From IMG/VR virus record IMGVR_UViG_3300005512_000004: a stretch of DNA of 64,000 nt. One strand, given 5' to 3'. This document shows, piece after piece, positions 11,163-54,477 of this stretch. The translations under genes and the position numbers were made by a program. The DNA is from an uncultured virus (IMG/VR IMGVR_UViG_3300005512_000004) (taxonomy: Duplodnaviria > Heunggongvirae > Uroviricota > Caudoviricetes). The notes under the pieces were generated by a model, which saw nothing but the letters and a program-made list of their open reading frames with translations, was not told where the DNA came from and searched no databases. Position 1 is the first letter of the stretch. Every line of letters starts with the position of its first letter.

Positions 11163-11208
11163 GGTGTCTGTACTCCGAGGAAGGTTGCAATGTGTGGTGG
11201 GCGTACTG

Positions 11209-13436: not shown

Positions 13437-13477
13437 CGTACAGGAGGTATATACCTATATAGGTAGTACTTCCACTT

Positions 13478-13507
13478 CGTTATCACAAAGGTTGCAGATG
13501 TCTACGC
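13478..13507 (-). promoter_or_regulatory. possible leftward promoter copy pointing through 13014..13436 toward the SLT gene
   Basis: GCGTAGACAT-CTGCAACCTT-TGTGATAACG then AAGT. Upstream box poor. Confidence 0.4.
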
Positions 13508-17744: not shown

Positions 17745-18922
17745 AGCCCTCGCGTACGCGCCCATACACTGTCAGGCAGCGTCATGATCTCCGACGCCTG
17801 TAACTCGAGCTTATCGAGCGCGAACTTCGACGTGTTGGTCGTCTGTCCCTCACGAGCGTAGCGCGTAATACCATTGACCAGGTCGGCTACGGTATCGCCC
17901 GGCTCCTCTACCCACGACGCGGCGAGCGAGAGCGCGAAGACGTCTTTGTCTCCTATGGGAGATAGGTAGTTCTTGAGGAGCATACCGTACGCTGTCGCAG
18001 CGTGCTCCATCGTAGGATCGCTTGTCCACTTCGTAGATCGAGCGTTAGACCATGCAGATGAGAAGTGCTGTACGAAGCCGCCCGTCTGTTTGAAGAGCTC
18101 GCCTACGCGCGTAATCACGCTGCTGACCTCTCCGCGATGGCGAACGCGCTTCAGGTAGCTGTCTGCTGCGAGCATCTGCATATTGGCGCAGAGTTGTCTG
18201 AACATCAGCAGGTTCATTGCGATCGACGTAGAGCCGTCATCGCGCAAGCTCCAACCGCGCCCAACTTGGAACGTGTCGTCCTTCCCCCACTTGTAGTCCG
18301 ACGGGTTAATCTCTTGTCGGAGTAACTCGCGAAAAGACAGCTGCGTGGTGTTGGGGTCGTAGATGTACGTACCTTTTGCGTCGGGTGCAGTCTGGCGTGC
18401 GATCGTGCGTAGCACATCGTTAGCGTACACATCGGGGTACGTCTCCGGGACGATGCCGAAGATAACACGCTCTCCCTCTGTGCCCGTCCTTGTGCGTACT
18501 TTCACCTTACCATCTTGCTGTAGAAGGGCGCGAGTGTTGTGTGCGCGAAGATCTACAGCTACGCCTGTAAGATAAGAATACGCGCCTCTAGGAGCGATAC
18601 CGCGCAGGAGCGCTCTATACGCGTCTTGTGTGGCTTTGTGATCAACGTCACCAAAGGTGATTGTCATGTCCTCGTCCACTTTAATATCGCGAATATTAAT
18701 CGTCGTGCTCTCTCGATCTTCGGCCTCAATCAGCCCTGCCAAACTAGCAGCAAGCTCTGGGGCGGAGGGGAGTGCGTTAAAATCTTCGATCTGTTTACGA
18801 AGTAGAGACTGTTGTCCTGGGCTGATGGTATAGTTCCCGCTCCCTAGTACAGATTGAGACGCGGCAAACCCGCGTATGGTGGGCGGCGCCTTAATCGCCA
18901 TAACATTGTTAACTGCGTTCAT
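17741..18922 (-). CDS. DUF932/DUF945-like protein
   Basis: DDGSTSI..FRQLCAN..RVRHRG motif and a C-terminal TVADLVNGIT helix; GAAAGGA RBS before ATG 18922. Confidence 0.7.
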   Translation of the reverse strand: MNAVNNVMAIKAPPTIRGFAASQSVLGSGNYTISPGQQSLLRKQIEDFNALPSAPELAASLAGLIEAEDRESTTINIRDIKVDEDMTITFGDVDHKATQDAYRALLRGIAPRGAYSYLTGVAVDLRAHNTRALLQQDGKVKVRTRTGTEGERVIFGIVPETYPDVYANDVLRTIARQTAPDAKGTYIYDPNTTQLSFRELLRQEINPSDYKWGKDDTFQVGRGWSLRDDGSTSIAMNLLMFRQLCANMQMLAADSYLKRVRHRGEVSSVITRVGELFKQTGGFVQHFSSAWSNARSTKWTSDPTMEHAATAYGMLLKNYLSPIGDKDVFALSLAASWVEEPGDTVADLVNGITRYAREGQTTNTSKFALDKLELQASEIMTLPDSVWARTRGL

Positions 18923-18977
18923 GGTTATTCCTTTCGCAGTAAAGCAGTTTAGAGTAGCGTAACTCACGCGAACACTC

Positions 18978-19007
18978 TTTTATCACCTCGGAGACGAGAT
19001 TATGCAC
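18978..19007 (-). promoter_or_regulatory. leftward promoter-like motif copy
   Basis: GTGCATAATC-TCGTCTCCGA-GGTGATAAAA then GAGT. Confidence 0.55.
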
Positions 19008-19211
19008 ACCCCCAAAGACGAAGATTTCTCAACTATCATCAAAGAGTTCAACAAGGCGCTCTCGCGCATGGGTCCTGGGATGGGCGACCCTGTTACTAGG
19101 GCCGAGAAAGCCCTTTTAAAAACCTTCTATTACTTCATTCTTCGAGAAGGATATGGAGAGCCTGGAGCATCTGCCGATCCTCAGCTGGGAGACCATAAAA
19201 AGTCGACGTAA
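19002..19211 (+). CDS. small hypothetical protein
   Basis: GGAG RBS; PVTRAEKALLKTFYYF helix. Overlaps the convergent gene. Confidence 0.55.
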   Translation: MHTPKDEDFSTIIKEFNKALSRMGPGMGDPVTRAEKALLKTFYYFILREGYGEPGASADPQLGDHKKST

Positions 19212-19584
19212 TTACGGCCCCGACTTTCTGCTTCATCGCCACGTCATCAATGTTGCGGAGAACGGCTGCGCGTACATCAGTACCGGCTGCCCCCCAAGAC
19301 AGTATCCCGTCAACGAGGAATACTGCGATGATGTGTGCGTCAGCATTAGGCAGTGACGCTCTTACCACGGTTTCCTGTGCAAGTGTGTCAATTAGGACTG
19401 CACAGCGCTCCATGAGCGCAAAGTCTGCGTTTGTATTGCAGACGAACTTGCGTCCGTAGAGGACATGGTTGCTTGTTCGGGGATAATTTTCCGCGTACTC
19501 CAGTACGGAGTCTGCGAGATGAGTCCACGATCTACCTGCGATTGCGCCGAGCGCTGCGACACCGAGTATACCGATCATATCCAC
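19135..19584 (-). CDS. hypothetical protein with N-terminal hydrophobic segment
   Basis: GAAAGGA RBS; promoter motif upstream. Confidence 0.65.
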   Translation of the reverse strand: MDMIGILGVAALGAIAGRSWTHLADSVLEYAENYPRTSNHVLYGRKFVCNTNADFALMERCAVLIDTLAQETVVRASLPNADAHIIAVFLVDGILSWGAAGTDVRAAVLRNIDDVAMKQKVGAVITSTFYGLPAEDRQMLQALHILLEE

Positions 19585-19613
19585 GTTCCTTTCATAGTGT
19601 GCGTGTGGTAGTC

Positions 19614-19643
19614 TGTTATCACCCGATTTATAGAGGAATTGAC
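19614..19643 (-). promoter_or_regulatory. leftward promoter-like motif copy
   Basis: GTCAATTCCT-CTATAAATCG-GGTGATAACA then GACTAC. Confidence 0.65.
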
Positions 19644-19644
19644 T

Positions 19645-22600
19645 ATGGGTCCTAACTTATACTCTCAGACGCCTGGCGCACTGCACATGGGTGGCGGGCA
19701 CGCTAATCCTTTCGCGGTAAATGACCCTCTTATGGGGAACATATACGGCCATACATCTCGAGGGGATGCGTTTGCGCGATTTGGTGCGTCTCTTCCGGGG
19801 CACGCGTTGACGCTGGGAGGTGTCGCGAGCCTAGCGAGCGGGTTCGGTATTGGCGGGAGGCTGACTGCGGGTATCGGGAACACGCTTGGGTTAGGTACAA
19901 TGAGTCTAGGCCCGCAGATGATAGCGACTGCTGCGCTGCAGTACGCTGCCGGTCAATTCTCTCGCGGACAAGAGCAAAATCAGATCGCTCAGAATCTCTC
20001 GCGGCGAGTCTTCGGAGAGAGAAACATCGGAGGTCGCACGGGTATGGGTGCGTCGCGAGACGCGATTGCAGGCTTCTCTAGTGCGTTTCGAGAGCTCGCT
20101 AACTCGTCCGAGATGTTAACGAACGACCAAGAGCTTAAGAATGTTTTGAACAAGTTTACAGACATGAAGCTCTTGGATACCTCTAAGAACCTCTCGGAGA
20201 TGGGCGCGCGCGTCAAGAAGATGTCGATGACGTTACGTGACATTTCGATGGATCTTGGAACGACGCTCGAGGGCGCGTTGCCGGCGTTTCAGCGACACGC
20301 GCAGATGGGCTTCATGGATCCCGAGCAGATGAAGCAGTCTATTCGCACCAACCGCGCTCTCCGAGGCGTCGGCATCTCTATGAACGACGCGACGATAACA
20401 TCATTCGAGATGGCGCAGGCGGCGACAAACTTCGCGATGGGAGGTGACCGCCGAATAGGCGCGCTTGGGGCGCAGCGCACACTCGGAAACATGAGCGTAG
20501 CGACGTCTATGGGCTTGCTGACAGATGAAGACCTGATGGCGGCTACAGGTAAGCGTGGCGAGGATGCTGTCGCGGATCTCTCTCAGCAATCTATGCAGGC
20601 GTCGTCGGCGATTATGCAGAGCGCGCATGGGAGACTTCTCGCTGCTGCGCTCGGCGACGTGGGGGAGGATGGTCGTTATACGGGAGGGATCGACCAAAGC
20701 GTGAAACGTCGTCTCAAGACAATGTCGATGGATGAGATTAGCCAGATCGCAAATAAAAAGCTTGGTGCTAAAGGAGGCGCCGCCTCTTTCGAGCGTCGTA
20801 TGAAGAGCGGTATGGGTGCTAATATGGGCGCGTCTCTCGACATGTCAGAGTTCTCATCCGTGCTAAATAAGGTCTTTGATAATGAAGACACGATGGCGAT
20901 CGTACTAGAGCAGCTTACCGGTATGCGCGGCCAGACCCTAGACGTATTGCTTAAGGTGCAAAAGGACGGAGATCGTATCGTCAAAGAGACCGAGCGTCGT
21001 ACAAAGGAGCTCTCACAAAGGAACCGCCTTAACGCCATCATACAGCGAGAGTTTACGATTGGCGGCCGACTCGATAAAGCATACCGAAACTACATAGCTG
21101 AGCCTATCAGTCAGCCTCTTCAGACGATGGGCTCGGAGTTCGGTACCGCACTCGGTAAGTACGTAGACAACTTCGGTACGCAGATTATGGAGAATGGCGT
21201 GGGTTCGGGCATAGGACGCGCGCTTTTCGGCCTCGGTATAAACGATGACGGGGCGGAGCAGTCTTATGACGACCGCCTGCGTAATCGAAAGAGCGCGGTT
21301 GCGGATATGTTCGGTGCGGGGACTAACACGGTACGGGGGCCCGAGTTGTCACTAGGTGAAGTGGGGCGTAATGTCGCTGTCGGTTTGGGAGGCGTCGCGA
21401 CCGGGAATGTCTACGCAATGGGCGCCGGCCTGGCGGGTATTGCAGATAACATCCACACGTATCACGCTTCGCAGCGAAGCAAAGACCTCTTCTCTACCGG
21501 CCGCGCGCGTGATAGGGAGCTACTCGCAGCAAGTAGCGCTTTGCAAGAGCGTGAGTTTGAGAGTGGACGCAACAGTACGTCTTTCGGTGAGACTGACGAG
21601 GGTTTCTTGGCCGCATACAAGGGTAATCGGCAGGACATCGAGTTCAATAAGCAACAGAAACGGTCCCTGCTGCGTGGCTTAGTCGCCGCGAGTGAGCAGG
21701 GTGGTGATATTGAGAACATGACAGAGGAGTTTGCGAAGGCGGCGTTTGGTATAGGCGATGGGTTTACGAAGTTTCAGCGAGACCAGATGGAGAAGCGTGG
21801 CGGGCAGTACGGTCTCATGAAGCAGCTCGCGAACGACAAGACGCTCACAGAAGGAGAGCGTGCGATGGCAAAGAGGTTCGTAGAGCAGTTCGAGACGCAG
21901 CTACGGAGCAAAGCGACGTTAGGTACGGCTGAGGACGTCGAGGCGAACCTCAAGAGCGCGAATTCTACGCTCGCTGATCTCTTTGACACAGGAACAGACG
22001 GCTTCGAAGAGAACTGGCTAGACAGTGACATTAACCACATCGAGAACGACTACTTCGCGAGTCTTCGTGAGGGAGGTCAGTTGAGCACGCTCGAGTCCTA
22101 CATGAAGGGTCTCTCAGATGAGACCACAGTACGTAAGCTCAGCAGACATAAACGTTTTAGCGACGCTATGAGCGCAGAAGACGCAATCGCGGTAGCGAAG
22201 GATGTGTTCGGTGTCGAGATTACGAAGGGCGAGGGTGAGACCGCGAAGGACATGTTTAAGATGCTCTTTAAGCGGATCACGTCCGAAGGCGTAGAGACAT
22301 TTACGCGGCAGATGAAGCCTATGGCGCAGAACGCGCTTAAGGCGATCACTAAGAAGAAGACCGCGGAGGGACAAAATAGGAAGCTCGCGCTCCTTAAGAG
22401 CTTCGATCAATCTACGGGGCTTGATTCCAAAAAGCGTAAAGATATACGAGAGGCGTATACCGAGGCCCTATCTGGCGGAGATGGGTCTAAGCTGTTCGAT
22501 ATGGTTTCCGGGCTCTCCAAAGAGGAGCTCGGTCAGCTAGACGGCCAAACGGGCAGGATATTTACGGAGCTCAAAGGGCTTGAGGGCAAGACCTCGGAGG

Positions 22601-22914
22601 AGCTCGCAAGTATGCTACAGGAGCAATTTGATACAGATACGGTAGCCGGACAGAAGCTCTCGGATATGACACTTGAGGAGCTTAAAACGCTTGCTGTGCA
22701 GAATAATTTGGTGGGACAGACGCCTGTAGCAACAGGGAACACCGCTGCTGGGCGCGCGGCAAAAAACCTAAGCCCCGAAACGTCCGCTAAGCTTACACAA
22801 GAGCTAAGCGATAACGTAGCATCGAACATAGAGATTATTACGTCTGCGGCGATGCGCTACCAAGCCGCCTCGACGCAAAAGATTAAAGAGCTCGAGAAGA
22901 AGACAGGAGGCTGA
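19645..22914 (+). CDS. tail tape measure protein
   Basis: ~1090 aa, Ala/Gly/Met-rich helical, hydrophobic Gly-rich patches; first gene of the tail/baseplate run. Confidence 0.7.
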   Translation: MGPNLYSQTPGALHMGGGHANPFAVNDPLMGNIYGHTSRGDAFARFGASLPGHALTLGGVASLASGFGIGGRLTAGIGNTLGLGTMSLGPQMIATAALQYAAGQFSRGQEQNQIAQNLSRRVFGERNIGGRTGMGASRDAIAGFSSAFRELANSSEMLTNDQELKNVLNKFTDMKLLDTSKNLSEMGARVKKMSMTLRDISMDLGTTLEGALPAFQRHAQMGFMDPEQMKQSIRTNRALRGVGISMNDATITSFEMAQAATNFAMGGDRRIGALGAQRTLGNMSVATSMGLLTDEDLMAATGKRGEDAVADLSQQSMQASSAIMQSAHGRLLAAALGDVGEDGRYTGGIDQSVKRRLKTMSMDEISQIANKKLGAKGGAASFERRMKSGMGANMGASLDMSEFSSVLNKVFDNEDTMAIVLEQLTGMRGQTLDVLLKVQKDGDRIVKETERRTKELSQRNRLNAIIQREFTIGGRLDKAYRNYIAEPISQPLQTMGSEFGTALGKYVDNFGTQIMENGVGSGIGRALFGLGINDDGAEQSYDDRLRNRKSAVADMFGAGTNTVRGPELSLGEVGRNVAVGLGGVATGNVYAMGAGLAGIADNIHTYHASQRSKDLFSTGRARDRELLAASSALQEREFESGRNSTSFGETDEGFLAAYKGNRQDIEFNKQQKRSLLRGLVAASEQGGDIENMTEEFAKAAFGIGDGFTKFQRDQMEKRGGQYGLMKQLANDKTLTEGERAMAKRFVEQFETQLRSKATLGTAEDVEANLKSANSTLADLFDTGTDGFEENWLDSDINHIENDYFASLREGGQLSTLESYMKGLSDETTVRKLSRHKRFSDAMSAEDAIAVAKDVFGVEITKGEGETAKDMFKMLFKRITSEGVETFTRQMKPMAQNALKAITKKKTAEGQNRKLALLKSFDQSTGLDSKKRKDIREAYTEALSGGDGSKLFDMVSGLSKEELGQLDGQTGRIFTELKGLEGKTSEELASMLQEQFDTDTVAGQKLSDMTLEELKTLAVQNNLVGQTPVATGNTAAGRAAKNLSPETSAKLTQELSDNVASNIEIITSAAMRYQAASTQKIKELEKKTGG

Positions 22915-22916
22915 GT

Positions 22917-23129
22917 ATGGCGTTCATCGACCCGACCACACAGATTATACAGCTAGACACTAGGGCGCGCGCGCCGTCAGTTTATGTAAAAGATACGGTC
23001 ACGGTTGAGGACATCGTCTTCATGTACGCGCGCACGAGCGCCGTGAACAAGCTCGGGACAAAGAACATTGTTCCGCAAGTACCTGCCAACATACGTCACC
23101 AGATTACACGCGTGCCTTATGTCCGATAA
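22917..23129 (+). CDS. small hypothetical tail-region protein
   Basis: AGGAGG RBS. Confidence 0.6.
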   Translation: MAFIDPTTQIIQLDTRARAPSVYVKDTVTVEDIVFMYARTSAVNKLGTKNIVPQVPANIRHQITRVPYVR

Positions 23130-24246
23130 GTTCGTCATGTTCATCCCCACCGTTCCTGCTCGCGAGACGACAGCTACGTATACCGCCGCTAAAGGTGATC
23201 TCGCTGCGCGCGGGAGCAACCAAGATATACGCCGACCGCTTGACGCCTTGACGTTAGCCGACGACTCGTACGCGACGATCTCACTGTTATCGGGTGGTAG
23301 CCTCCATAACACCTCTGTCGCGTCTGGTAGATCATCTACGAACGCTAACCTGCTCATACAGTCGCTCAGCTACAGTATCGCGGAGAAGCACCAACGCGCC
23401 CAGACATTTGATCGAGATAGGCTGTTCTTCTTCGGGCAGACATTGGCGACGCTACGAATAGACGCGAGGACACTCGACACGCTTACATTTCAGTGGCTAC
23501 AGGAGCTTCACGAGAACTACGCTACGCGGATAGGGGGCTCGATTGCGGCAGAGCGTGGCGCAAAAGTACAGATCACGAGCGATGGACGTGTCTATACAGG
23601 GTATATCCTCGATATGAGCTTCGCCAAAAACGCAGCGGATCGCTATACTGCGAATGTAAACTTCTCCATGGCGCTCACGAGCCTTAAGCACCTTAAGCGC
23701 CTGCGGAGTACGGTAGACGAGAAGGACCTGGGCCAGCTTAGTGTAGAACAGGCCTTTCCTGAGATCTCAGCGCTGCTCGCTAGCAGCGGTGGCGGGAGCG
23801 CGGATACGGGTGCCCCCCTAGCGTCGCAGGTAGATGCCCTTATATACTCGGAGCTTAAACCCGTCACAGAAGGTACGTACGCGTTTAAGGACATTTATCT
23901 AAACGAGTACCCGAACCGATCATACGGCTTCTTGACAGGGAATAGTTTTGTTTCAAAAGAAGAGACGGTCGAGCGCGTGAAGATGCCTAACGAGCTCGCG
24001 GAACAGCTCGACGGGAGCTTCGATGATGTATTTGATTACTACGTCGATTACGGGGCAGGCGTTACTACTGCGCCTATAGGCACAGACGGTGCAGACGTAT
24101 CGACCCTCGAGAGCACCTATACTGATCCTATACCTGCCCTCCAGCGAGACTTGACCGGCGAGCAACTCCCTACGGGAGATGATAGTGTATCTCTCGCCGC
24201 GAGCGTAGGAGGTAACCTATCCCCCATAACGTCCTTCGGCATTTAA
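23119..24246 (+). CDS. tail tube initiator / baseplate-associated protein (putative)
   Basis: Directly after the TMP. EKHQ..QTF..FFFG and YTGYILDMSF beta pattern typical of tube-fold proteins. Confidence 0.45.
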   Translation: MSDKFVMFIPTVPARETTATYTAAKGDLAARGSNQDIRRPLDALTLADDSYATISLLSGGSLHNTSVASGRSSTNANLLIQSLSYSIAEKHQRAQTFDRDRLFFFGQTLATLRIDARTLDTLTFQWLQELHENYATRIGGSIAAERGAKVQITSDGRVYTGYILDMSFAKNAADRYTANVNFSMALTSLKHLKRLRSTVDEKDLGQLSVEQAFPEISALLASSGGGSADTGAPLASQVDALIYSELKPVTEGTYAFKDIYLNEYPNRSYGFLTGNSFVSKEETVERVKMPNELAEQLDGSFDDVFDYYVDYGAGVTTAPIGTDGADVSTLESTYTDPIPALQRDLTGEQLPTGDDSVSLAASVGGNLSPITSFGI

Positions 24247-24255
24247 GGAGTCCTT

Positions 24256-27200
24256 GTGCTCATTGATCCTCGTTGCGACCTCAAGCTTTTTATGGAGGGG
24301 TACTCGTGTTCAGTCATGTCTGCGAGTATCAACACAGCTGTCACGCTCACCGCCACAGTCGAGGTACTGCCTACGAAGCAAGTGCGTGATATTAAGCCCA
24401 TGACGAACGTGGTGATTGGGTACCGAGATGTCGCAGGCGCAAAGCCCGTGCTTGCCGACGAAGCAGGCGTGACATACTCCGTACTATTCGTGGGGATGGT
24501 GACGGGTGTGGCGATTAACAAATCGGGGACGTCTAGGAGCGCGACGCTCTCCTGCGCGGGCCACCAGACGTTACTGCAGAGACACTACACGTACGTTTCT
24601 AATGTGGCGACGCAGTCCTTTAGTCATCAAAAGAACTTCTCAGGCGCTTCTTCTTTTCTGAGAACAGACACGGGGAAGGGCGGACTAGCAGCGCAGGTGG
24701 AGGCCGTCTTCCAAGACCCCGCGCCTCCGTTTACGCCAGGCCTCGGGCAGCTAACAGGCCCGCCTAAAGGTGCGGTCAAGTTGATCGAGAAGTGTGTGGG
24801 CGTGACTCTCCCTGCAGGATCCGCCTACGAGGGTAAGGTGCATGGTGCGCAGCATGAGTTCTTTGCGCACGCGTCACACCAATGCCGCCTCTTATTTCAA
24901 ATCGACGGCGTCTCTGTTGATGACGGACTAAACAGCATCATCGACAAGAACACTACGGGAGCCGCCCTAAGCGGTGCAGCATCTCAGCTCAACGATTTGA
25001 CGGATTTGGGGACGATGCTCGACATACTCCTAAAGCAGCTCTATTACTGCTTCACGCCGATCGGTGCGCCACGAACGATGATCGGTACGGATACGGATGT
25101 GGTCCAACGAGGCAATACGCTTACTGAGCTGCGACAGAAATACGTGTCGGAGGTGATCTCGGAGGGAGACGTAGTACCTGACACGCTCGGCTCGCCTACA
25201 GCGGTTGATGTGAGCGCCGCAGTAGAGGCCGTGTACAAGGACATCGGCGAAGAGACGGACGCCACCGTGGAGTCTAAGCTGCGTACAGTACTCGAAAAAA
25301 CCCCGCAGGTAGTTTTCCCGCAGCTCTACGACGATATTACGGCATCCGTCCCCAAAGACCGCGTCGAGGCGCTCCTTAATCGCTGCGCGCCCTTCCTCTA
25401 TACTGCTGTCAAGCTGAAGAAGTCTGGGAAGAAGCTCACAGCGCAGGAGGCCGACCATATAAGCCGTGCCACCGCGGCCATTCTACGCAACATTGCCGCC
25501 GTCTCGAAGGTAGAATCTGGCGTACAAGGTAACTCGTTCGCGCGTGTTATCTCGTACAGCCTTATGCCAGACTTAACTTTCTGCACGCCTCCCACGTGTA
25601 ACGTAATCTTTCCGAATCAAATCGCGACGTTCAACTATGCCAAAGACGCGTTTAACATGCCTACGCGTCTGCTGCTTCATGGCTCGCTTGTCCCGAACGC
25701 CGACGAGAAGAAGGGCGGGGCAGCTGGTTACTACGCACCCTCTACGTCAGCCTTTGCTCATCAAGGAGCCGTCGCCAATGAAGAGGAGGAGATCCCTCTG
25801 CTTCCACACGAGAAGTTTACTGGGATTGTGCCCTCGTACGCCTCGATTAGTTTCTTCGAGAAGTACAAGACAATGGATCCTTCGAACAGCACGGAGATCA
25901 TGCTGCGTATCGCGAACTTCAACCTCATGCTCCAGCGATACGCCTCTACCGGAATTACATGTACGGGCCCTTTCAATCCCTTCGCGGCTGTAGGCTTTCC
26001 AATCGCGTTTATTGACGTAGACGATATCTCAGCAGAGAGCCCTACGACCTATGTCGGGATACTCTCGTCCTGTTCGCACTCGTATAGTGGAGCAGGTAAC
26101 GCGTCTACGACATACACGGTGAAGTCTGTTCGCGAGGTAGGTGAGGTCGACGAGATTTTTGGTGACGCGCTTCTACGTGCTACAAGCGGCGGGCCTACAG
26201 CGACCGCGCTCACCTACACAGACACGGCTACCGAGGGAGGCAACTTTGTACAGTCAGCGCTCACCCGCGCGCTTTCTCCACTAGCGGATATGCCTGCTTT
26301 TCTCGCAGCCTACGACCTTCGCCGTGATGTAGAGCTTGTAGTGAACGGCGCAAAAAAACAGTTCAGGCGTGCGTTCCTAAGGCCCGCGGTGCGGGAAATT
26401 CTACAGAAGCACGTGCCTCCAGAGCTTAAAGGACGCACGGTGATCGGTGTAGAGTGGGAGGGTACAAGCATCGCGACACCACTCGTTATGCTAAACGGGA
26501 TAGGGACGGAGTTTAAGTCGACTAAAGCGCTCATAGAGTATATCGAGCGTCAGCCTCTCGTAAACAACGTCGAATACGCGCTCGAGCGCATAGCGGAAAA
26601 CCTCGCGAAGTATTTTGTCCCGACACCCGAGATCGTGCAGGCAATCGTAGACATACAAGGTGTCTTACGCAGTGGTGCCCCTCAGGGCGCGTTCTCGTAT
26701 ACTGCACTGAATAGGGTATCCGGTACCAAGACTGCACTTCAGCTGCTAAACACGAAAGTCAAGGTGCAACTCCAGCGAGGTATTCATGATGAGGATGCGA
26801 GCGCTGCCTTGAAAGGAGAACACGAGATCACCTTGCTCGCTCTTCTGCCATTAGACGTTGAAAGGATCATCGCATCGATTGTAGCGGGTACCGCGTCCTT
26901 CTTTAACGACGCGATGAGCTTCCCGAGTAACGCATTCACGTCCGTCTCGGTGTTTTTCGATGCCGGAGAGCAAGGGACAACACCTGTCGCCTCAGAAAAG
27001 GTTGCTGTCGAGGAGCTCTACAGGCCACCGTGGTTTTCTGATATTTTCTCTATCGCCAATATCGGTAAAGCGGTTTACCAGCGCGCGCTCGGCTGCGGCT
27101 CTGTGCAAGACGCAGTACCAGCATCTGTGCCGAGAGACACTACGGTAAACACGGTGAATGGCGGTCTCCTTACCCACACTACGCAGACGAGCCTACTGCA

Positions 27201-27504
27201 GGCATACAGAGCGTACAAGGAGGCGCCCGCATACTCTAAGGGGGAGTTCGTAAATGCCTTCGTACGACGTCCTATCGCCAACGTACAGGACGTGCTGGGC
27301 ACAAACGGGTTACTTACGACGCCTATCGCAGACGCATGCGTTGTCGATCTAGGGCAGATATGTAATAAATCGAAGGTGAGAGACTTGGCGGCTACGGATG
27401 CCACAAGTACGAGCCTTACGTTCGACCCAAACGAGTTAGTGTCTGAGAAGCGAGCGGGCGTAAATGCCTATATTGCAAGCATAAAAGGAGATGCGTTCCG
27501 ATGA
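24256..27504 (+). CDS. baseplate hub / tail tip protein (putative)
   Basis: 1082 aa. VLFVGMVTGV, PPTCNVIFP, GPFNPFAAVGFP..YVG.L.S.SHS patterns; position after the TMP. Confidence 0.55.
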   Translation: MLIDPRCDLKLFMEGYSCSVMSASINTAVTLTATVEVLPTKQVRDIKPMTNVVIGYRDVAGAKPVLADEAGVTYSVLFVGMVTGVAINKSGTSRSATLSCAGHQTLLQRHYTYVSNVATQSFSHQKNFSGASSFLRTDTGKGGLAAQVEAVFQDPAPPFTPGLGQLTGPPKGAVKLIEKCVGVTLPAGSAYEGKVHGAQHEFFAHASHQCRLLFQIDGVSVDDGLNSIIDKNTTGAALSGAASQLNDLTDLGTMLDILLKQLYYCFTPIGAPRTMIGTDTDVVQRGNTLTELRQKYVSEVISEGDVVPDTLGSPTAVDVSAAVEAVYKDIGEETDATVESKLRTVLEKTPQVVFPQLYDDITASVPKDRVEALLNRCAPFLYTAVKLKKSGKKLTAQEADHISRATAAILRNIAAVSKVESGVQGNSFARVISYSLMPDLTFCTPPTCNVIFPNQIATFNYAKDAFNMPTRLLLHGSLVPNADEKKGGAAGYYAPSTSAFAHQGAVANEEEEIPLLPHEKFTGIVPSYASISFFEKYKTMDPSNSTEIMLRIANFNLMLQRYASTGITCTGPFNPFAAVGFPIAFIDVDDISAESPTTYVGILSSCSHSYSGAGNASTTYTVKSVREVGEVDEIFGDALLRATSGGPTATALTYTDTATEGGNFVQSALTRALSPLADMPAFLAAYDLRRDVELVVNGAKKQFRRAFLRPAVREILQKHVPPELKGRTVIGVEWEGTSIATPLVMLNGIGTEFKSTKALIEYIERQPLVNNVEYALERIAENLAKYFVPTPEIVQAIVDIQGVLRSGAPQGAFSYTALNRVSGTKTALQLLNTKVKVQLQRGIHDEDASAALKGEHEITLLALLPLDVERIIASIVAGTASFFNDAMSFPSNAFTSVSVFFDAGEQGTTPVASEKVAVEELYRPPWFSDIFSIANIGKAVYQRALGCGSVQDAVPASVPRDTTVNTVNGGLLTHTTQTSLLQAYRAYKEAPAYSKGEFVNAFVRRPIANVQDVLGTNGLLTTPIADACVVDLGQICNKSKVRDLAATDATSTSLTFDPNELVSEKRAGVNAYIASIKGDAFR

Positions 27505-27827
27505 ACAACGTTGATCGATTTAGATTCTTCCTAAAAGTAGCTGCCTACGAACCCGTACAGGACGATATGTATGCGTCTGGTTCTGCACAACGGCACGTAG
27601 ACAATCAAATGGCGCGCGCGTTCTCTCGGAAGAACTTAGGGACTGCGGCAGCGGGCGCAGCAGGCGCAGCAGCGGCATATAAACTGTCTAAACCGTTCTC
27701 GGATGCGCGCATTCCTTTGGGACAACAGAAACTTAGGGGCGCGGCTATGTTGGGAGCAGGCCTATATGCTGCCAAAAAAGCACGCGATTACTTAAGTGCT
27801 CCTCCGCCGAATAACGGAGCTGTGTGA
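27501..27827 (+). CDS. Ala/Gly-rich putative virion-internal protein
   Basis: Leader FRFFLKVAA; GTAAAGAAGAAAAY and GAAMLGAGLY segments. Confidence 0.6.
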   Translation: MNNVDRFRFFLKVAAYEPVQDDMYASGSAQRHVDNQMARAFSRKNLGTAAAGAAGAAAAYKLSKPFSDARIPLGQQKLRGAAMLGAGLYAAKKARDYLSAPPPNNGAV

Positions 27828-28669
27828 TGGACGACTTAACAACATACCTGCTCGGATCTGTTGGTGTGAAGACCGCGAATGTCGCCGCACCCGCTATGCC
27901 CGCTATGCCTACTATGCCCGATGCGCCGAGCGCGCTCCCAAAGAAGCAGCAGCGCGGACTACAAGAGCTGTCTATGTGGCAGACGTGGAAAGACAGCGGC
28001 TATAAGGAACAGCACCTTGAGCCACTCATGCAGTCTTTAGATCCCGCGATCACATTCCACGTCAACAAGTGGAAAGCTGCGAACGTACCAGAGCATCTTA
28101 TCCGCATACGTGCAAAGCAGATTACCGTAGACTCTCTAAAGAACTATACGCCTACAGCGGGGCACGGCGGGAAGGTAGCGAGCCCAGGCTCGTGGGTGCA
28201 GCAGAACCTCAACCAGCTCCAGCGGTTTATCGTAACGAACCAAAACGTAGGACGTATTCAAGAGAATCGCGCAGGAAAAAATAAGCGTATCTTTGATGAA
28301 GCGCGTCAGTATCTACGTGAGATGTACGGTAGAGAGCCGACCATCAAAGAGATCGCCGAAGACATGACCACCAAGCTCGGTAAATCGATCACGGAGAAAC
28401 AGGTGCGTATGTACGTCCGTGAGGAGCGGAGAGACAACACGGTCTCTGACGAGAACTTTGTCTATACCCCTACCGCGACGCGTATGCTACTAAAGCTACT
28501 GCCCGAAGAGCTCACACCGCTAGAAAACCAAGTATTCGAGCGCCTATACGGGCTCAACGGGATTCGGCAGATGAAGCCTGGGGAGATAGCGCGCGATCTT
28601 CGTATCGACGGATCACGCGTGAGCCGTATCAGCAATAAGATACGCGAAAAGGCAAGCGAGTACTTATGA
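27824..28669 (+). CDS. phage RNA polymerase sigma factor (sigma70 family, group 3/FliA-SigF-like)
   Basis: Region 2-like segment (LKNYTP..G.KVAS..SWV), region 3 LREMYGREPTIKEIAE, region 4 LTPLENQVFERLYGLNG..KPGEIARDLRIDGSRVSRI. N-terminal VKTAN + PAMPAMPTMP linker. Confidence 0.85.
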   Translation: MMDDLTTYLLGSVGVKTANVAAPAMPAMPTMPDAPSALPKKQQRGLQELSMWQTWKDSGYKEQHLEPLMQSLDPAITFHVNKWKAANVPEHLIRIRAKQITVDSLKNYTPTAGHGGKVASPGSWVQQNLNQLQRFIVTNQNVGRIQENRAGKNKRIFDEARQYLREMYGREPTIKEIAEDMTTKLGKSITEKQVRMYVREERRDNTVSDENFVYTPTATRMLLKLLPEELTPLENQVFERLYGLNGIRQMKPGEIARDLRIDGSRVSRISNKIREKASEYL

Positions 28670-33469: not shown

Positions 33470-34094
33470 CATTTCAAAATACTCGTACGCGCTCTCTGTG
33501 AACAACGTTCGGGTAGTCTCTGTGACGCCGCCGATCATTATGATCTCTGCTAACGGGCTTGACCAAGCGCGCAGCATTTTCATCAACGACATACCCTGCC
33601 GTTTCGAGATCAGCTCGACATCAACAGCCTTGGTAGAGGTGCCCGCTAATGTAGCGCAGTCTGGGATCGAGCGTATTACCGCAGAGGCTACAGGGCCTGT
33701 AGCAGTCGCGGGAGACGTCGCGGTGTCGTTTTCCTTTGAAGAACTAGCCACAAGGGTGACGGGCATCTCGGCGCTCGTACAGCGCTTCTTAAAAGTGCTA
33801 CTCACGAATCAAGGCACCAGCTATCAGGCCCCTAATGAGGGTGGCGGAGTACTTAATATGGTAGCGCTCTCTGATGGAGATCGGCTTGCGGAGGGTGTAC
33901 TTGTAGACGCAGTGACAAACGCAGAGACGTACTTCAAAGACGACCCTAAGTACGTGGAGCTGGACCCGTCAGAGCGTCTGCTGAGTGCGGAGATTCTGTC
34001 ATCTTCGTGGGATAGGGCGAGCCAAACCGTCGCCATCTCGATACGTATAACGAACCAGCTCGGTGAGACGGTAGATTCAGGAGTGTCCTTATGA
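33459..34094 (+). CDS. baseplate wedge / sheath initiator (gp25-like) with N-terminal Ig-like domain
   Basis: VTGISALVQRFLKVLLT..G.S..P..GGG and ERLLSAEI..VAISIRITN; directly before the baseplate J-like gene. Confidence 0.65.
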   Translation: MDLSISKYSYALSVNNVRVVSVTPPIIMISANGLDQARSIFINDIPCRFEISSTSTALVEVPANVAQSGIERITAEATGPVAVAGDVAVSFSFEELATRVTGISALVQRFLKVLLTNQGTSYQAPNEGGGVLNMVALSDGDRLAEGVLVDAVTNAETYFKDDPKYVELDPSERLLSAEILSSSWDRASQTVAISIRITNQLGETVDSGVSL

Positions 34095-37000
34095 GCCTTA
34101 AAGCGTTACTAGAGTCCAAGATACGTGAGTACGACGCCTCGATTGACCTCACAGAGGGCAGTCGTATTCAGAGAACGGTCATTGCACCTGTCGTAGACTC
34201 GCTCAGCACAGACCCTCTGAGCGTTAGTACTAGGGATTATCTGTACGCGCGGTTCAGCGAAGCGTTCCCAGATGCTCCCATTACACGCGGTAACGCGCTC
34301 GACGACATCTTAATCACGGCCTGCGAGTATTTCCTCGAGGGGTACCGCGCGGAGCTCTCTCGGCTAAGAAACGCTACATCACTCGATAATCTCAACCTGT
34401 TGTCTGACGACGAGGCTGACGCGCTCGCGAGCAACTGGTTTGTGACACGAGATGCAGGTGCTCGCGCGACAGGCACAGTGACCGTGACTGTCGATCGTCC
34501 TTCGGCGATCAGCATCACGACGACAGGTGTACGCTTTTTTAACGACACGGCAGAGTACGCGCCTACGATCAACACAACGATAACGACGGACGCGTTGCTC
34601 GCTAACGCTATCGGGAGCGGGCAGTATCAGTTTACGCTGAGCGTACAAGCTGTCGCGGTTGGCGCAGAGTTTAACGCAGCGGCGAGCCGCGTTACGCGAG
34701 TACGCGGTATTCCCAATGTAGTCTCGGTTAACAACACCGCACCTATTCTTGGCGGACTCAGTCGCGATACGACAGAGTACTTGTTGAGCAATAAGCTCCC
34801 TCGTGCGATCTCTGAGCGATCTCTTGTCACAGCACGCGGTATTGGCGCGCGTATCGTGACAGACGTCCCAGGTATCCTACGTTACCAAGTCGTAGGACAC
34901 GGTGATGTTGAGATGTTGCGAGATCGTGTCGAGGTGCAGTCCTTCACAGAGCTCGTCGCGGCCGGACACATCTTCTACATGTCTAGCTTCGCATTGATCA
35001 GCGCGTTCCCTTACACCTCGAGCACGCTCAGTGTGGGCGACTACTTGCAGACCTTCGGTGCGGCTGCCGCACCAGGTACACTTAAGGTCGCCCGTGTTAT
35101 CAGCAGCTTACCGCTGAGTGTCCTAAGTGCGAATGAGTTAGGGTTTACGACGCTGGTCGAGCTCGAGTCGCCTCCGCCGAACGGCGCTATTGCGGGTGCG
35201 CTCTCAGTCCTACGCCCAGGTACGGCTCTGTTAGGTGACACTAGTGTGTCGTCTGGTGTCGGGCTCGGAGGCAGAACGGACGTATACATCAAGGGAGATT
35301 CCGAGCAAAAGATTGTGGGTACAGCCGCGCTAGATCTTTCTGAGGTCATCTATCGCGGAAGTGCATGGAGTATGCAGGGTAATGTCGTCACGGTGGCTCT
35401 CGATATCACCGTTGAGCAGAATCAGCTGAAGCGGTACCAGCACATCATTCTCAAAGAGACCGCGTACACAATCTCTGCGGTAGAGTTAGCGAATAACTCA
35501 CCACAAGCCACCATTTATGTATTCGACGCAGACGTGACGGACAGCGGAGATGAGTACTACATCGTAGATCGACTCCACTACAGCACCGCCGCAGATTTTA
35601 GAGTCTTATCTCCTCGAGGAGGAGGCGAGCTGCGTCTCTCCTGTATCATCGGATCGGCAGAAGCAACGCTGTTAGGCGCAGATCTCACGAAAGACGGTGT
35701 ACGTCAGGGGGACATTGTCGAGGTCCCTTCTCTTGGGATACGTAGGTCTATCTTCTCTGTGGAGAGCTCTACGAAGGTTTTTGTAGACAACGCCTTCCAA
35801 CAAACGCTCTCTGACGTCGGTGCGCGCGTCATACGATTTATCGCAAAAGCGGTAAGCCCGATGCTCGAGTTTGATGTGCCGTCCTTCTTACCACAGCACC
35901 CTCTCTCGGTTGACGTCGAGGCTGTCCGCGCTGAGATAGGCGAGGTAGGGGCGGGCACAGGGAATATCCTTCTCCCGTTAGGCGACGCGGTAGCACGCAG
36001 CATGGCCGCGACACAGATACATACGATCTTTGCAGATCGCTATAACTCCTTAGATTACCACGCTTTTAGTGCTGCGTCTGAGACCGAACGTGCAGGTAAC
36101 CGTCTCGCACCTGCGTCTCGCGGCTATCTTAACGAGACGCCCGACGACCTGGGGCTGTGTAGTGTTCTCGTCGCTGAGCCTGTTGAGTCTAATGACGTGG
36201 GGATTGTTCCTAATGGCGTGTACGAGATGCGGACGTGGTGCGACCTGTTTACACGTAACGCGAACAACATCTTTGTGTTGCGTGGGGACACACGTACGAG
36301 CGCGCGTATGCTAGACTTCCCTGGCGGGAAGGTGATGTCGGGCGACGTCCTGCGTATCACCTCAGGCTATATGGCCGGTGACTACGTGATCGAGTCGGTA
36401 TTACATAATACGCTCGTGCGTGCGGGCAGAACCCCTAAGCCTCTAAGGCGGGATGGTTTTATCAACGAGCTCGAGGGCGAGTTTACCTACGCGGACATTA
36501 CGACGGAGACACTAGACGACGATATTTGGTACCAAAAGGTGTCCTTCGTCCGCATCTATGGGGAGTTCCCAAAGAACCCTATGGCGGCACTCGCTGGAGA
36601 CCTAGCGGTAGAGCTGCATACACGTCACACAGAAACGAACCCCCTCTTCAACGCCGATTACCCGCTCCCTGAATGGTCCATCGGTTCTGTCAGCTCCGCT
36701 TTCTTGAATGCGTTTATTAATGGCAGGGCTACGATGCTCGACCCTAACGCGTCTGCACGGATCTTGTCGGAGTTTAGGGAGGCGCTCACACACGCGGCGT
36801 TGCCTGCGCAGGTGACGAACGACGTGACCTACCTCGGAGATCTCTTCGAGCAAGGGCTTAACGCGACCTATAAGGTCATACGGCCTTCAAGTAGCCTAGG
36901 GCGCGTTAAGACACGTATGGCGGGAAGCCAAGTTGTTCTGGCGCGTCCTGCCGCACCTAGAATAGACGTAGATAATCTCATTGAAGAGCTCTACACCAAC

Positions 37001-39367
37001 TCTGTGAGAGAGATTACTCATAGAGGACACACAGAGCTTACAGGGAGCGTCGGCACGTACCACCTCTCTCCACGAGAACGTTATTACACGGGCGGGAAAG
37101 ACCTCACACAGTGGCAGAGTGAGACGTCACCCGCGCTGTACTCCGACAGGACTATTGTGGATACGTTCGTGCCGAGTCTCGAGTCCGAGTACGTTCTCTT
37201 CGATTCTCTGATTGATGCTCCTGCCGGGGGACAGCGCCCCGTAATACTGCGAGGACCTTCCTCTGTCACAACCCCTTACATGAGGTACGACGGGACAAGA
37301 CTGATCCGTTACCCCGAGCAGCGTATCGCGTCGAGTCATTTGACACTCTCCAGACAAATGACCGCGCTCACCCAAGTGTACTTCGCATGTCCCGCGTTCT
37401 CTGTTCCTGATTTACAAGAAATCTACATACGCGCTGTGGGGGCAAACGAAAACGGTCAACTGCTGCAGTATCTACTAGCAGGCACGGATGCGTTCGAGGC
37501 TGTGATCGCCGAGCTCGGGGACGCTGTAGACGGCACAGGTACGCCCTTAGAGACCATTTATCGCCAACAAAGCGCGATTATTCGGTTTGATGACCAGATC
37601 CCTGACGAGAACGCACGGCTAGTAGCTCTGTACGGGCAGCTCGTGGAGGCTGTGTTTGACACGGGGGAGGTGTCCGACGAGTTTGTTATGGGCTCTATGT
37701 TACCTACGCAGGGATTTACGTTAACAGGCTCGTCCGATACGTGTATCCCTATAGCAGTCGCGACTGTGTCCCAGCGAGCGGATCGTATAGAGATCGTGCC
37801 GTCAACTACACAGGAGAGCTTCCACAATATTGAGGGCTCGCGCCTACGCATTGACTACAGAGACACTGTATATTGGCGTCGCGCGGCAGGTGTTGACGGC
37901 TCGTATGTTTACCTTGACGAGCCCCTCCCTTTCGGAACACCTGCATACGAGGCCTACGGGATCTGCATGGTTGATCTCGAGCTAGGCAGTGTCGTTCTCG
38001 TCTCGGACCCGATCTTTGCAGGAGGAGATCTCGCATTAGACGCATGGGAGCAACAGTACACCACACATCTCAACACCGGAGGCGTCAGTAGACTGCTCAC
38101 CAGCAACGATATTGGCAAGCACATCACGCTGTGGGGATACCGTACAAATCAGCTCGACTATACTCGTGTTCTGCTCGACCCAGCTCTGCCAGAGCTGAAC
38201 TCAGAGAGCGATTTTTTCGAGAGCCTCATGCTTCCAGAGCGTGAGACCTTCGGGCAGTTCTTGGTCACAGATGTCGTGCCTACCTTCGGGCAGGTCATGC
38301 CGGGGGCCACGGCTGTACCTATTCGTATCGATGTTGAGGTCGCGGGCGCGATTTCTATCGAGACCCCACGCGTACTCGAGACACAGCCCACGAAGCTGTT
38401 ATGTGCGTTTGTCATTACTTCGGCGGCCAATACGCTCGAAGAAGATAGGATTAACAACGTCGTGCAGGTAACCGCCTTCGCGCAAGAGCCCTATGAGTAC
38501 AACATCGTAGGTATCAGTAAGAGCGTACCGAACGAGTATCTCGCGCAGCCTATCTTCGGTTCGTACGCACATGGCTACGCTCTGATCACAGACCAGCTTA
38601 CGTCGGAAGTCGATGTGAGTACGTATTGCCTCACGCAAGATCACACGCTAGAGCCTACGACCATCGAAACAGACCACCTCGTTGTCCTCACAGACGCAGA
38701 CGATATAGTGATTCGTACAACAAACGCGCCCTCTTCGGTCTCGGCAGAATCCATGCACGCTGACGGGGAAGCAGCCTTCGGGTATACGTGTGCCCCTAGA
38801 GACGTAGGCACGAGCAAGTCTGTGGACGAGGATATCGTGGTGTCCGTTCCATGCACCCCTGGTCCGATAGCTGACACATTGGCCGTAAGTGGCTATTTCG
38901 ACCCGAGCATCGGACAAGCGCAGTCGCTCGTAGATTCAACAAACGAGCGTCCGGTATGCGCAGACATCCTCATAAAGACGCTGCACCAGGCTTATATTGG
39001 TTTGACCCTCACCTACGTAGGGGGGCCTTCACAAGCCGAAGTACGCGACGCGCTCTCTGAGTTTATTAAGAGCCGTGTTCTTACGGACACAGCGATCACA
39101 CGCAGTAAGATCATAAGCCTCGTCATGAATATGGGGGCGTCCACGGTAGATCAACCGATCGACTTGTATGTCTGCTTCGAGGATAACCTTAGAAGGATAC
39201 ACAAGAGGACGATCGCGGACGGCCTTAAGGCAAGCACGCTCTTTAGCGCAGATGTTACATTGCGTACAATGTACCCAACCATCGCGGTCGACGATAGGCT
39301 CGGCGCGAGCATAGATGTCACTCGATTATCACAGGCGACAGCCACAGTCGGCAACGGAGGTTCATGA
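34091..39367 (+). CDS. large baseplate J-like (gp6-like) wedge protein
   Basis: DALASNWFVTR..GARATG.V, VQAVAVGAEFN, VSVNNTAPILGG..DT motifs at the N-term. Confidence 0.75.
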   Translation: MSLKALLESKIREYDASIDLTEGSRIQRTVIAPVVDSLSTDPLSVSTRDYLYARFSEAFPDAPITRGNALDDILITACEYFLEGYRAELSRLRNATSLDNLNLLSDDEADALASNWFVTRDAGARATGTVTVTVDRPSAISITTTGVRFFNDTAEYAPTINTTITTDALLANAIGSGQYQFTLSVQAVAVGAEFNAAASRVTRVRGIPNVVSVNNTAPILGGLSRDTTEYLLSNKLPRAISERSLVTARGIGARIVTDVPGILRYQVVGHGDVEMLRDRVEVQSFTELVAAGHIFYMSSFALISAFPYTSSTLSVGDYLQTFGAAAAPGTLKVARVISSLPLSVLSANELGFTTLVELESPPPNGAIAGALSVLRPGTALLGDTSVSSGVGLGGRTDVYIKGDSEQKIVGTAALDLSEVIYRGSAWSMQGNVVTVALDITVEQNQLKRYQHIILKETAYTISAVELANNSPQATIYVFDADVTDSGDEYYIVDRLHYSTAADFRVLSPRGGGELRLSCIIGSAEATLLGADLTKDGVRQGDIVEVPSLGIRRSIFSVESSTKVFVDNAFQQTLSDVGARVIRFIAKAVSPMLEFDVPSFLPQHPLSVDVEAVRAEIGEVGAGTGNILLPLGDAVARSMAATQIHTIFADRYNSLDYHAFSAASETERAGNRLAPASRGYLNETPDDLGLCSVLVAEPVESNDVGIVPNGVYEMRTWCDLFTRNANNIFVLRGDTRTSARMLDFPGGKVMSGDVLRITSGYMAGDYVIESVLHNTLVRAGRTPKPLRRDGFINELEGEFTYADITTETLDDDIWYQKVSFVRIYGEFPKNPMAALAGDLAVELHTRHTETNPLFNADYPLPEWSIGSVSSAFLNAFINGRATMLDPNASARILSEFREALTHAALPAQVTNDVTYLGDLFEQGLNATYKVIRPSSSLGRVKTRMAGSQVVLARPAAPRIDVDNLIEELYTNSVREITHRGHTELTGSVGTYHLSPRERYYTGGKDLTQWQSETSPALYSDRTIVDTFVPSLESEYVLFDSLIDAPAGGQRPVILRGPSSVTTPYMRYDGTRLIRYPEQRIASSHLTLSRQMTALTQVYFACPAFSVPDLQEIYIRAVGANENGQLLQYLLAGTDAFEAVIAELGDAVDGTGTPLETIYRQQSAIIRFDDQIPDENARLVALYGQLVEAVFDTGEVSDEFVMGSMLPTQGFTLTGSSDTCIPIAVATVSQRADRIEIVPSTTQESFHNIEGSRLRIDYRDTVYWRRAAGVDGSYVYLDEPLPFGTPAYEAYGICMVDLELGSVVLVSDPIFAGGDLALDAWEQQYTTHLNTGGVSRLLTSNDIGKHITLWGYRTNQLDYTRVLLDPALPELNSESDFFESLMLPERETFGQFLVTDVVPTFGQVMPGATAVPIRIDVEVAGAISIETPRVLETQPTKLLCAFVITSAANTLEEDRINNVVQVTAFAQEPYEYNIVGISKSVPNEYLAQPIFGSYAHGYALITDQLTSEVDVSTYCLTQDHTLEPTTIETDHLVVLTDADDIVIRTTNAPSSVSAESMHADGEAAFGYTCAPRDVGTSKSVDEDIVVSVPCTPGPIADTLAVSGYFDPSIGQAQSLVDSTNERPVCADILIKTLHQAYIGLTLTYVGGPSQAEVRDALSEFIKSRVLTDTAITRSKIISLVMNMGASTVDQPIDLYVCFEDNLRRIHKRTIADGLKASTLFSADVTLRTMYPTIAVDDRLGASIDVTRLSQATATVGNGGS

Positions 39368-54463: not shown

Positions 54464-54477
54464 TAGAGAGGTGTTCT

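Follow-up and report, generated by a model that had tools for sequence, protein, structure and literature searches.

A sigma70-family factor encoded among the virion genes of a large tailed phage, and its probable partnership with a phage-encoded RNA polymerase

Results

The sigma gene and its genomic setting

The 64-kb window (the whole stretch of DNA analysed here) comes from a large tailed phage, with matches to baseplate wedge, tail fibre, ribonucleotide reductase and GroES proteins. Inside a rightward run of overlapping genes lies an ORF of 281 amino acids (27824..28669, + strand), predicted from profiles, fold and blastp to be a sigma70-family factor and the orthologue of gp10 of Salmonella phage Arash. 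Its translation likelier begins at ATG 27827 (280 amino acids), since GGAG is found 7 nt upstream of this codon, the homologues begin with MD, and the codon overlaps the TGA of the preceding gene. This small upstream gene (27501..27827, +) was found by ORF and tag scanning to carry a K-x-A near its N-terminus, which recurs in the corresponding genes of L003, L007, L008, L009, L012 and other loci. At the other end, the sigma stop codon overlaps the ATG of the gene at 28666, so that both gene ends overlap virion-operon neighbours. Further upstream is a conserved block of tail genes (19639..27504, +); its members include a 1091-aa ORF (putative tape measure), 23068 and 24256 (putative hub), none of which had a family match, the labels being assigned by size and position. 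The same rightward block contains a baseplate wedge gene (34091..39367, +; phrog_6, E 5e-10).

Homology search retrieved 35 close homologues of the sigma among 706 candidates, and a wider set of 1,440 representatives at E <=0.001, some of which will be ordinary sigma factors. A homologue of 24256 precedes the sigma gene in 26 of the 36 fetched loci, one of which is identical to the window, and the remaining 10 have at most 2.2 kb of upstream sequence. Cultured relatives with the same gene order are the Vibrio phages D69, D148 and D181, as well as Arash. The window sigma and Arash gp10 are 25% identical by blastp (E 2e-8), and the L001 sigma bridges the two, with 35% identity to the former and 32% to the latter. 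The window has 11, 12 and 12 genes in common with the genomes G001, G002 and G006, respectively, with the same order of tail and baseplate genes. A large ORF of 2,827 amino acids in the window (55044..63527, +) had no match in Pfam or PHROG; G001 and G002 have large genes at the same position.

The first-pass annotation had recognised a sigma70-family ORF with regions 3 and 4 in the baseplate operon, and this was borne out by the profiles, the structural comparison and the overlapping neighbours. The Pfam matches to region 3 (28298..28429, +; PF04539, E 7e-4) and to the helix-turn-helix of region 4 (28478..28663, +; PF04545, E 2e-4) are weak and both below cut-off, and phrog_351 (sigma) matched the ORF with E 7e-11. 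When the predicted model was searched with Foldseek, the 41 matches with E <=0.001 were sigma or holoenzyme entries. By VIA-align, regions 1.2 and 2 of the model (residues 41-141; 27947..28249, +) fitted RpoS 5h6x with a Z of 10.5 and an rmsd of 2.6 over 93 aligned residues, and region 4 (residues 218-279) fitted 4g6d with a Z of 9.9 and an rmsd of 1.6 over 62. The whole-chain model is poor (pTM 0.39), as is expected of domains that are flexibly linked. A profile made from the close family alone matched no solved structure, whereas the wider, 101-row family profile aligned regions 2.2-4 to RpoS (E 4e-17), and to FliA only with E 5e-8. A specifically FliA/sigma28-like identity was therefore considered and rejected, as the FliA model TIGR02479 also gave no match to the window sigma at E 0.001; across the family, TIGR02479 was weakly matched by 74 of the 101 members and the RpoD/SigA model by 81. 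The region 2.3 tryptophan pair is absent from the consensus of the 101-row profile. Overall, the ORF encodes a full sigma70-family factor with regions 1.2 through 4.

A K-x-A leader precedes the sigma core

The sigma starts with a leader (27827..27877, +) that is conserved in homologues and ends in K-T-A (K-x-A at 27869..27877), a proposed head-protease site. It is followed by a Pro/Ala/Met-rich, predicted disordered linker (27878..27940, +; pLDDT <50 at residues 12-38), whose length and sequence vary among the homologues. The GVKTA-N and the PAMP linker of the sigma, and the FFLKVAA of 27501, are indeed all present as first described.

Retention of the leader in homologues, which the earlier reading had named as a check, is extensive and incomplete. 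A short hydrophobic helix followed by K-x-A was found in 30 of the 35 close homologues and in 16 of 17 members of a second clade; a 31st match of the regex among the close homologues was discounted, since it lay within the core of a truncated sequence. Among 150 distant representatives, 36 have fewer than 12 residues before the core and thus lack a leader; in the other 114, K-x-A occurs within the first 30 residues of 85, compared with 31.5 +/- 4.6 in shuffled sequences (1,000 shuffles; maximum 50) and 14.7 in control windows taken from the core. In the same 114 N-termini, K-x-S, K-x-G, R-x-A and E-x-A were not enriched; K-x-x-A was (56 versus 30.5 expected), which we read as a by-product of K-x-A-A. 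The K and the A are fixed, and the x varies (L, E, T, F, Q, I, K). The close homologues P0013 and P0014 have kept the N-terminal helix and lost the K-x-A, while the leader is lacking from Arash gp10 and the D69 sigma, gp10 being also without the linker. In the second clade (L015-L036, L056-L063), a basic V-x-x-H-x-R repeat, rather than a Pro-rich linker, comes after the K-x-A; this repeat may possibly bind DNA after trimming.

The head genes of the relatives carry the same motif. Arash gp222 matches a head maturation protease family (E 2e-6), and in all five genomes its orthologue has K-x-A within the first 40 residues; the capsid protein has it there in all three of the five genomes in which it was located, and the scaffold-like genes neighbouring the protease and capsid genes are dense in K-x-A. 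Since the motif is thus present at the N-termini of the relatives' capsid protein and maturation protease, it is plausible as a head-protease site, and we consider it fairly probable that K-x-A is the prohead-protease site and that the sigma is cleaved there, with the cut assumed to fall after the alanine. None of the G001, G002 and G006 polymerases carries K-x-A within its first 50 residues.

It is to be noted that the plain motif does not predict virion detection in Arash, where, in the accessible virion data, 16 of 33 proteins with an N-terminal K-x-A were detected as against 91 of 206 others (p 0.71). A stricter tag, K-x-A-[SAG], fared better at a threshold of at least 5 peptides (7 of 9 versus 58 of 230, p 0.002), and was given little weight because it was picked post hoc and was driven by one head operon. 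Considering that leaderless gp10 was detected in Arash virions, the leader appears not to be needed for packaging of the sigma in that phage. Nor is bare K-x-A significantly enriched in the window alone (6 of 44 rightward ORFs versus 3.4 expected, P 0.10), and its significance therefore rests on the homologues.

The first-pass annotation had listed eight other ORFs of the window with this tag as putative head-internal proteins. Tag-like context was found in all eight, each of them rightward; it lies near the N-terminus in only five, and the location of the eight inside the head stays putative. The five are 3037..3522 (+; K11), 8151..8792 (+; with four further copies), the Gly/Ala-rich 11250..12521 (+; with internal copies), 13014..13436 (+; K15) and the sigma-preceding 27501, whereas in 490, 3377 and 4123 the copies are mainly internal or C-terminal. 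Three of these ORFs (8151..8792, 11250..12521 and 13014..13436) each stand alone as a rightward gene amid leftward ones, and two of the three are directly back to back with a site of the motif described below. PHROG comparison placed the ORF 4123..4506 (+) with phrog_220, annotated as 'minor head protein and DNA pilot' (E 2e-19); G001 encodes a K-x-A-tagged protein of 633 amino acids, part of which shares 56% identity with this ORF.

A promoter-like motif before leftward genes

The leftward genes were earlier said to share CAAA-N14-TGTGATAA, and exactly three copies of it were recovered, all on the minus strand (2353-2378, 6153-6178 and 11211-11236); none was found in 100 shuffles, although the pattern was post hoc. 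The window has nine copies of the TGTGATAA part, all of them on the minus strand (mean 0.7, maximum 4, in 200 shuffles); taken as one 8-mer among all, its p of ~1e-5 is not significant after multiple testing, and the case for the motif therefore rests on position and conservation. Eight defining sites gave a longer version than the earlier one, [C]AA[A/T]-N14-TGTGATAA-N4-GTAC. Seven of them precede leftward ORFs: 2345..2378 (before 1645..2301), 6145..6178 (before 5723..6124), 7219..7252 (before 6827..7192), 8110..8143 (before 7596..8075), 11203..11236 (before 10941..11162 and the ribonucleotide reductase gene 8776..10836), 18972..19005 (before 17741..18967; also in L009) and 19608..19641 (before 19135..19584; L004 has it as well, and L007 has it at the same position). 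The eighth, 13472..13505, is antisense to 13014..13436 and has no close leftward start. The matrix built from these sites had five further matches of at least 10 bits, of which one lies inside a rightward gene, one is on the plus strand, and three precede leftward starts: 5536..5569 (15.3 bits), 6786..6819 (17.7 bits; before a Shine-Dalgarno (SD) sequence and the ATG at 6723) and 7562..7595 (10.2 bits). Altogether, 11 leftward (minus-strand) sites of the wider motif were counted, and 10 of these are followed by a leftward SD sequence and start codon 34-80 nt on. A rightward reading, with TTATCACA before rightward genes, was rejected, as leftward runs contain 6 of the 11 sites and a leftward SD and start follow 10 of them.

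Some features next to these sites deserve mention. The copy at 13472..13505 points leftward over the K-x-A gene 13014..13436, the next leftward gene (12491..12991) lying ~480 nt on, and could make an antisense RNA; the palindrome ACCTATATAGGT is found just downstream of it. The genes 12491..12991 and 7596..8075, both small and leftward, have weak matches to SLT transglycosylases (E 0.005 and 0.04, respectively). The product of 17741..18967 (-), behind another site, is a conserved protein of the clade with 22 homologues and a weak DUF932 match.

Co-occurrence of the motif with the sigma in relatives was another check named in the first-pass annotation, and counterparts of the motif were found across the family. 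By unbiased 8-mer counts, GGTATAAG (30 minus, 1 plus) and GTCATAAG (15 minus, 0 plus) were the top words in Arash and G001, respectively; D69 showed a minus-strand bias of 18:1 for GTTATAAG and G006 one of 11:4 for GGTATAAG. The top 8-mers of G002 did not include the motif, for which the wider pattern gave 20:12, or 11:3 with the downstream element. Among seven close loci scanned, a matrix site was found before a leftward gene in three (L004, L007 and L009). In Arash, the sites precede genes for helicase, RNase H/primase and other non-structural proteins. The architecture is kept over a GC range of 33-64% and in phages of Salmonella and Vibrio hosts. A scan of viral contigs for the promoter pattern returned 12 single matches with one weak family protein match, which were taken as chance.

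The sigma28/FliA promoter consensus is TAAA-N15-GCCGATAA. The leftward motif resembles it in being bipartite and in ending in ATAA; it has N14 as spacer, TGTG, and GTAC downstream. Seven sigma70-consensus matches were found in the window, none on the strand and at the place of a motif site, and by their sequence the leftward sites appear to match host sigma70 promoters poorly. A search for a late promoter motif found nothing consistent, and no late promoter class was identified.

The only plus-strand copy of GGTATAAG in Arash (L038, 11588) lies 12 nt upstream of gp9-gp10 and is conserved in all five Arash-like loci (L113-L117); it is possibly a promoter of the sigma's own gene, or else a conserved stop/start junction. 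Such a copy before the sigma was not found in D69, the window or six of seven close loci, a loose plus-strand match in L009 lying inside the upstream gene.

Sigma-carrying genomes encode an RNA polymerase

The first-pass annotation assigned the sigma to the host core RNA polymerase (RNAP). This part of its proposal found no support, since the testable relatives encode a beta/beta' enzyme of their own, which the accessible Arash data also place in virions. The RNAP beta family PF00562 was matched, far over cut-off, in 3 of 3 and 8 of 8 searched sigma-carrying records (11 of 11 in total). Conversely, the sigma was found in 19 of 37 RNAP records, including all 11 with at least 90% completeness, and all 18 misses are at most 45% complete. 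Many of these records are near-copies, and the counts therefore overstate independence. The polymerase of the relatives is one chain of ~2,070-2,100 amino acids, or two chains in Arash and D69, with one PF00562 match per relative in a frame of 1525-2101 amino acids. No alpha gene was found in five of five relative genomes, a search in which 14 of 14 positive controls were recovered.

No RNAP gene was found in the 64-kb window. In G001, G002 and G006, the start of the polymerase gene is 27-30 kb past the end of the orthologue of 54436..55044, in the same orientation, and a beta-beta' gene is accordingly predicted ~18-21 kb to the right of the window's end. The sigma subclade of the window itself has 24 rows, none of them from a record in which RNAP could be checked; every checkable neighbouring clade has the enzyme. 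The sigma tree used here is a quick version with an open backbone, and served only to mark the RNAP-verified clades. Viral scans with the sigma, 16610 and 17741 families yielded nothing that linked this subclade to a polymerase, and the close-family alignment held one viral record and none among the genome contigs, and hence no such link. Nonetheless, we hold with high confidence that this genome has its own polymerase, and only slightly less firmly that the sigma serves a phage polymerase, the partner being probably phage-encoded rather than the host core; these estimates, and those below for packaging and promoter reading, are our own and concern correlated steps.

The sigma and the polymerase in Arash particles

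By LC-MS/MS of Arash particles (PMC10585845, accessible data), gp10 was detected with 24 unique peptides and 467 spectra, and the polymerase with 128 and 3,516 (gp206) and 40 and 1,210 (gp216), respectively. When the 239 CDS were ranked by unique peptides per 100 amino acids, gp10 came first, above the capsid protein; gp240-251 and gp225.1 were left out, as their numbering could not be matched clearly to GenBank. No entry for gp196, the second sigma, is present in the accessible virion list of the same paper. The preparation reported there was a single sucrose gradient with pelleting, 62 of the 180 minus-strand genes were detected, and the authors themselves allowed for carry-over; overall, the preparation looks impure. 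The first-pass annotation knew of no description of the system it proposed; presence of such a sigma in virions is in print for gp10, as a table entry and one sentence, and the accessible text of PMC10585845, which gives gp10 in a list, treats neither promoters nor leader nor mechanism.

No second sigma of the gp196 type was found in G002, G003, G004, G006 or G018. A weak match in G006 (E 0.003) was rejected, as the 273-aa protein has no sigma family match. As G002 and G006, the two of these genomes scanned for it, keep the leftward motif without a second sigma, the motif is tied to the gp10 family. In G027 and G028 (L129, L130), a second and highly divergent match to the sigma profile was seen (E 1e-11, 515-aa frame).

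The earlier proposal that the sigma is made late, packaged and used at leftward promoters thus has indirect support from its operon position, the Arash virions and the family-wide leftward motif. A sigma made from a late operon can act on early promoters of the opposite strand only if it is carried in the particle. We regard packaging of the sigma in the virion as quite likely, and recognition of the leftward motif by it as likely to a somewhat lesser degree.

Discussion

Comparison with known systems

The T4 capsid-targeting leader is cut by gp21 at the motif (L/I)-x-E. The leader described here is likewise a short N-terminal peptide with an end motif common to head scaffold, protease and capsid (in this case, in the genes of relatives); it differs in the motif being K-x-A, and in that cutting and targeting, known for T4, are putative here. 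Phage sigma factors such as T4 gp55 and SPO1 gp28 also serve a private class of promoters; they use the host core and are made during infection, in phages that are not known to encode an RNAP. The N4 virion RNAP, a packaged and injected enzyme for early genes, is single-subunit.

Arash (OQ632216.1) and the Vibrio phages D69, D148 and D181 have the orthologous sigma after the same tail-gene block, a beta/beta' polymerase of their own, a K-x-A-rich head operon and a leftward ATAA-type motif; Arash differs in the leaderless and linkerless gp10 and, like D69, in having a second sigma of the gp196 type. In phages of the phiKZ/AR9 type, as described in the accessible parts of PMC7598289 and PMC7824862, the polymerase is, as proposed here, made late, packaged and injected for the early genes, has no alpha, and is served by an AT-rich motif before the early operons. 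There, the enzymes are split into 4-5 chains in two sets, and PMC7824862 states that this group has no sigma factor; here, the enzyme is one fused or two-chain protein accompanied by a sigma. In keeping with this difference, the relatives do not show two split beta/beta' sets without a sigma70 homologue, and have instead one PF00562 match each, plus the sigma. The group 2 jumbo phages of PMC7824862 resemble the present family in having a sigma-type factor with a private class of promoters, although, as far as the accessible text goes, they have no RNAP of their own and make the sigma during infection, whereas here an RNAP co-occurs and the sigma gene is in the virion operon. The mReC phages (PMC7481178, accessible text) are also tailed and have an alignable bacterial-type beta/beta' RNAP; their capsid proteins match PF07068, while the Arash capsid protein gp226 matches only PF05065, and weakly. 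The accessible main text of PMC7481178 does not contain the words 'sigma', 'promoter' or 'virion', and in its accessible supplements five of six record identifiers are absent, the sixth appearing only for other contigs at the two of three places shown. The lineage in the accessible part of PMC12619734 is unrelated and without RNAP.

Proposed mechanism and its alternatives

The sigma fold, its operon position, conservation of the leader, the leftward motif and the co-occurrence of RNAP in relatives are established in this analysis. For the presence of an RNAP in this genome, sigma-RNAP binding, cleavage, ejection, promoter recognition and timing, we infer the following. The sigma would be the promoter-specificity subunit of a phage-encoded bacterial-type RNAP (fused or split beta-beta', with no alpha gene found), the gene for which would lie outside the 64-kb window in this genome. 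Late (virion-gene) operons would supply both proteins for loading into the head, where, in this clade, the prohead protease probably trims the sigma leader at K-x-A. At infection, the two would be delivered with the DNA, and the pair would transcribe the opposite-strand non-structural genes from promoters of the CAAA-N14-TGTGATAA-N4-GTAC type. As a whole, this model of a packaged sigma and phage polymerase reading the leftward motif has, in our estimation, slightly better than an even chance of being correct.

The alternatives differ in where the sigma acts, and with which partner. If it served the phage polymerase only within the infected cell, in middle or late transcription, its detection in Arash particles would be carry-over on the polymerase or contamination, for which the impure look of that preparation leaves room; in addition, no late promoter reader was identified in the single-sigma genomes, and the plus-strand motif before gp9-gp10, present in Arash and in five of five Arash-like loci, could give earlier expression. 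We nevertheless consider such a purely intracellular role unlikely, since gp10 is the most densely covered protein of the accessible virion table while gp196 is absent from it, the gene overlaps virion-operon neighbours at both ends, and the plus-strand copy is missing from D69, the window and six of seven close loci. An injected sigma that redirected the host core RNAP to the leftward promoters after packaging and maturation, as initially proposed, would agree with its complete regions 2-4, as in bacterial sigmas, and with the lack of an RNAP gene within the window, and host subunits might be borrowed, as no alpha gene was found in five relatives; set against the joint occurrence of sigma and phage RNAP in every testable record, and of gp10 and the phage polymerase in the accessible particle data of Arash, it appears very improbable.

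The extended -10 consensus is TGnTATAAT, which the TG-T-GATAA-T of the leftward motif resembles. The packaged pair might accordingly read other promoters, with the leftward motif being read by the phage core alone or by the host housekeeping sigma, for which it would be a variant extended -10. When the window sites are placed in the extended -10 register, only 1 of 11 has T at -12 and 5 of 11 have T at -7, while 30 of 40 minus-strand GGTATAA sites of Arash have G at -7; moreover, none of the seven sigma70-consensus matches falls on the strand and place of a site, and the architecture is kept over 33-64% GC and in both Salmonella and Vibrio hosts. Such a division of labour thus seems decidedly unlikely. 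It is also conceivable that a packaged holoenzyme exists in which the K-x-A leader is vestigial or a docking peptide, the sigma entering the head on the polymerase, as might be read from leaderless gp10 in the accessible Arash virion data and from P0013 and P0014, which kept the helix and lost the K-x-A. The fixed K and A around a variable x, the lack of enrichment of K-x-S, K-x-G, R-x-A and E-x-A, and the same pattern in the virion helicase gp217, which carries the tag in G002 and G006 and lacks it in Arash, speak against this, and we give it as little credence as the use of host core.

Novelty and significance

Virion polymerases of the phiKZ/AR9 and N4 kinds are known already, as are sigmas with which phages use the host core, and detection of the gp10 orthologue in virions has been published; the sigma system is shared with relatives and so is not unique to the window. 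Beyond the Arash table, a search mostly confined to literature outside subscription journals found no virion-packaged sigma and no paper on K-x-A cleavage. On balance, we lean narrowly towards regarding the system as a variant of virion-delivered transcription machinery that is new in form. In the accessible text of the reviews PMC7598289 and PMC7824862, a polymerase of one's own without sigma and a sigma for host core are separate strategies; the Arash-like family has both polymerase and sigma, and a cultured member has both in the particles. A broader and more tentative version, to which we assign less than an even chance, is that a widespread family of myoviruses of 160-200 kb injects a minimal, alpha-less holoenzyme, consisting of one fused beta-beta' chain and a true sigma70-family subunit that is loaded and matured through K-x-A, which reads family-wide promoters with no host subunit; if true, this would join two strategies that the reviews treat as exclusive. 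If the pair works alone, it would be a very small sigma-dependent polymerase of the multi-subunit type, usable as an orthogonal transcription system, and would bear on the question of how the bacterial enzyme acquired its alpha subunits and sigma. K-x-A, if it acts as proposed, would be a sequence tag that predicts head cargo in uncultured phages. With its predicted promoters, its two sigmas and the predicted K-x-A cut sites, Arash makes these steps testable.

Finally, the Arash virion helicase gp217 has a counterpart with a leader in G002 (142799..144580) and in G006 (87394..89163; both in sigma-oriented coordinates), the Arash protein having none; this helicase is a candidate for a further part of the injected transcription kit.
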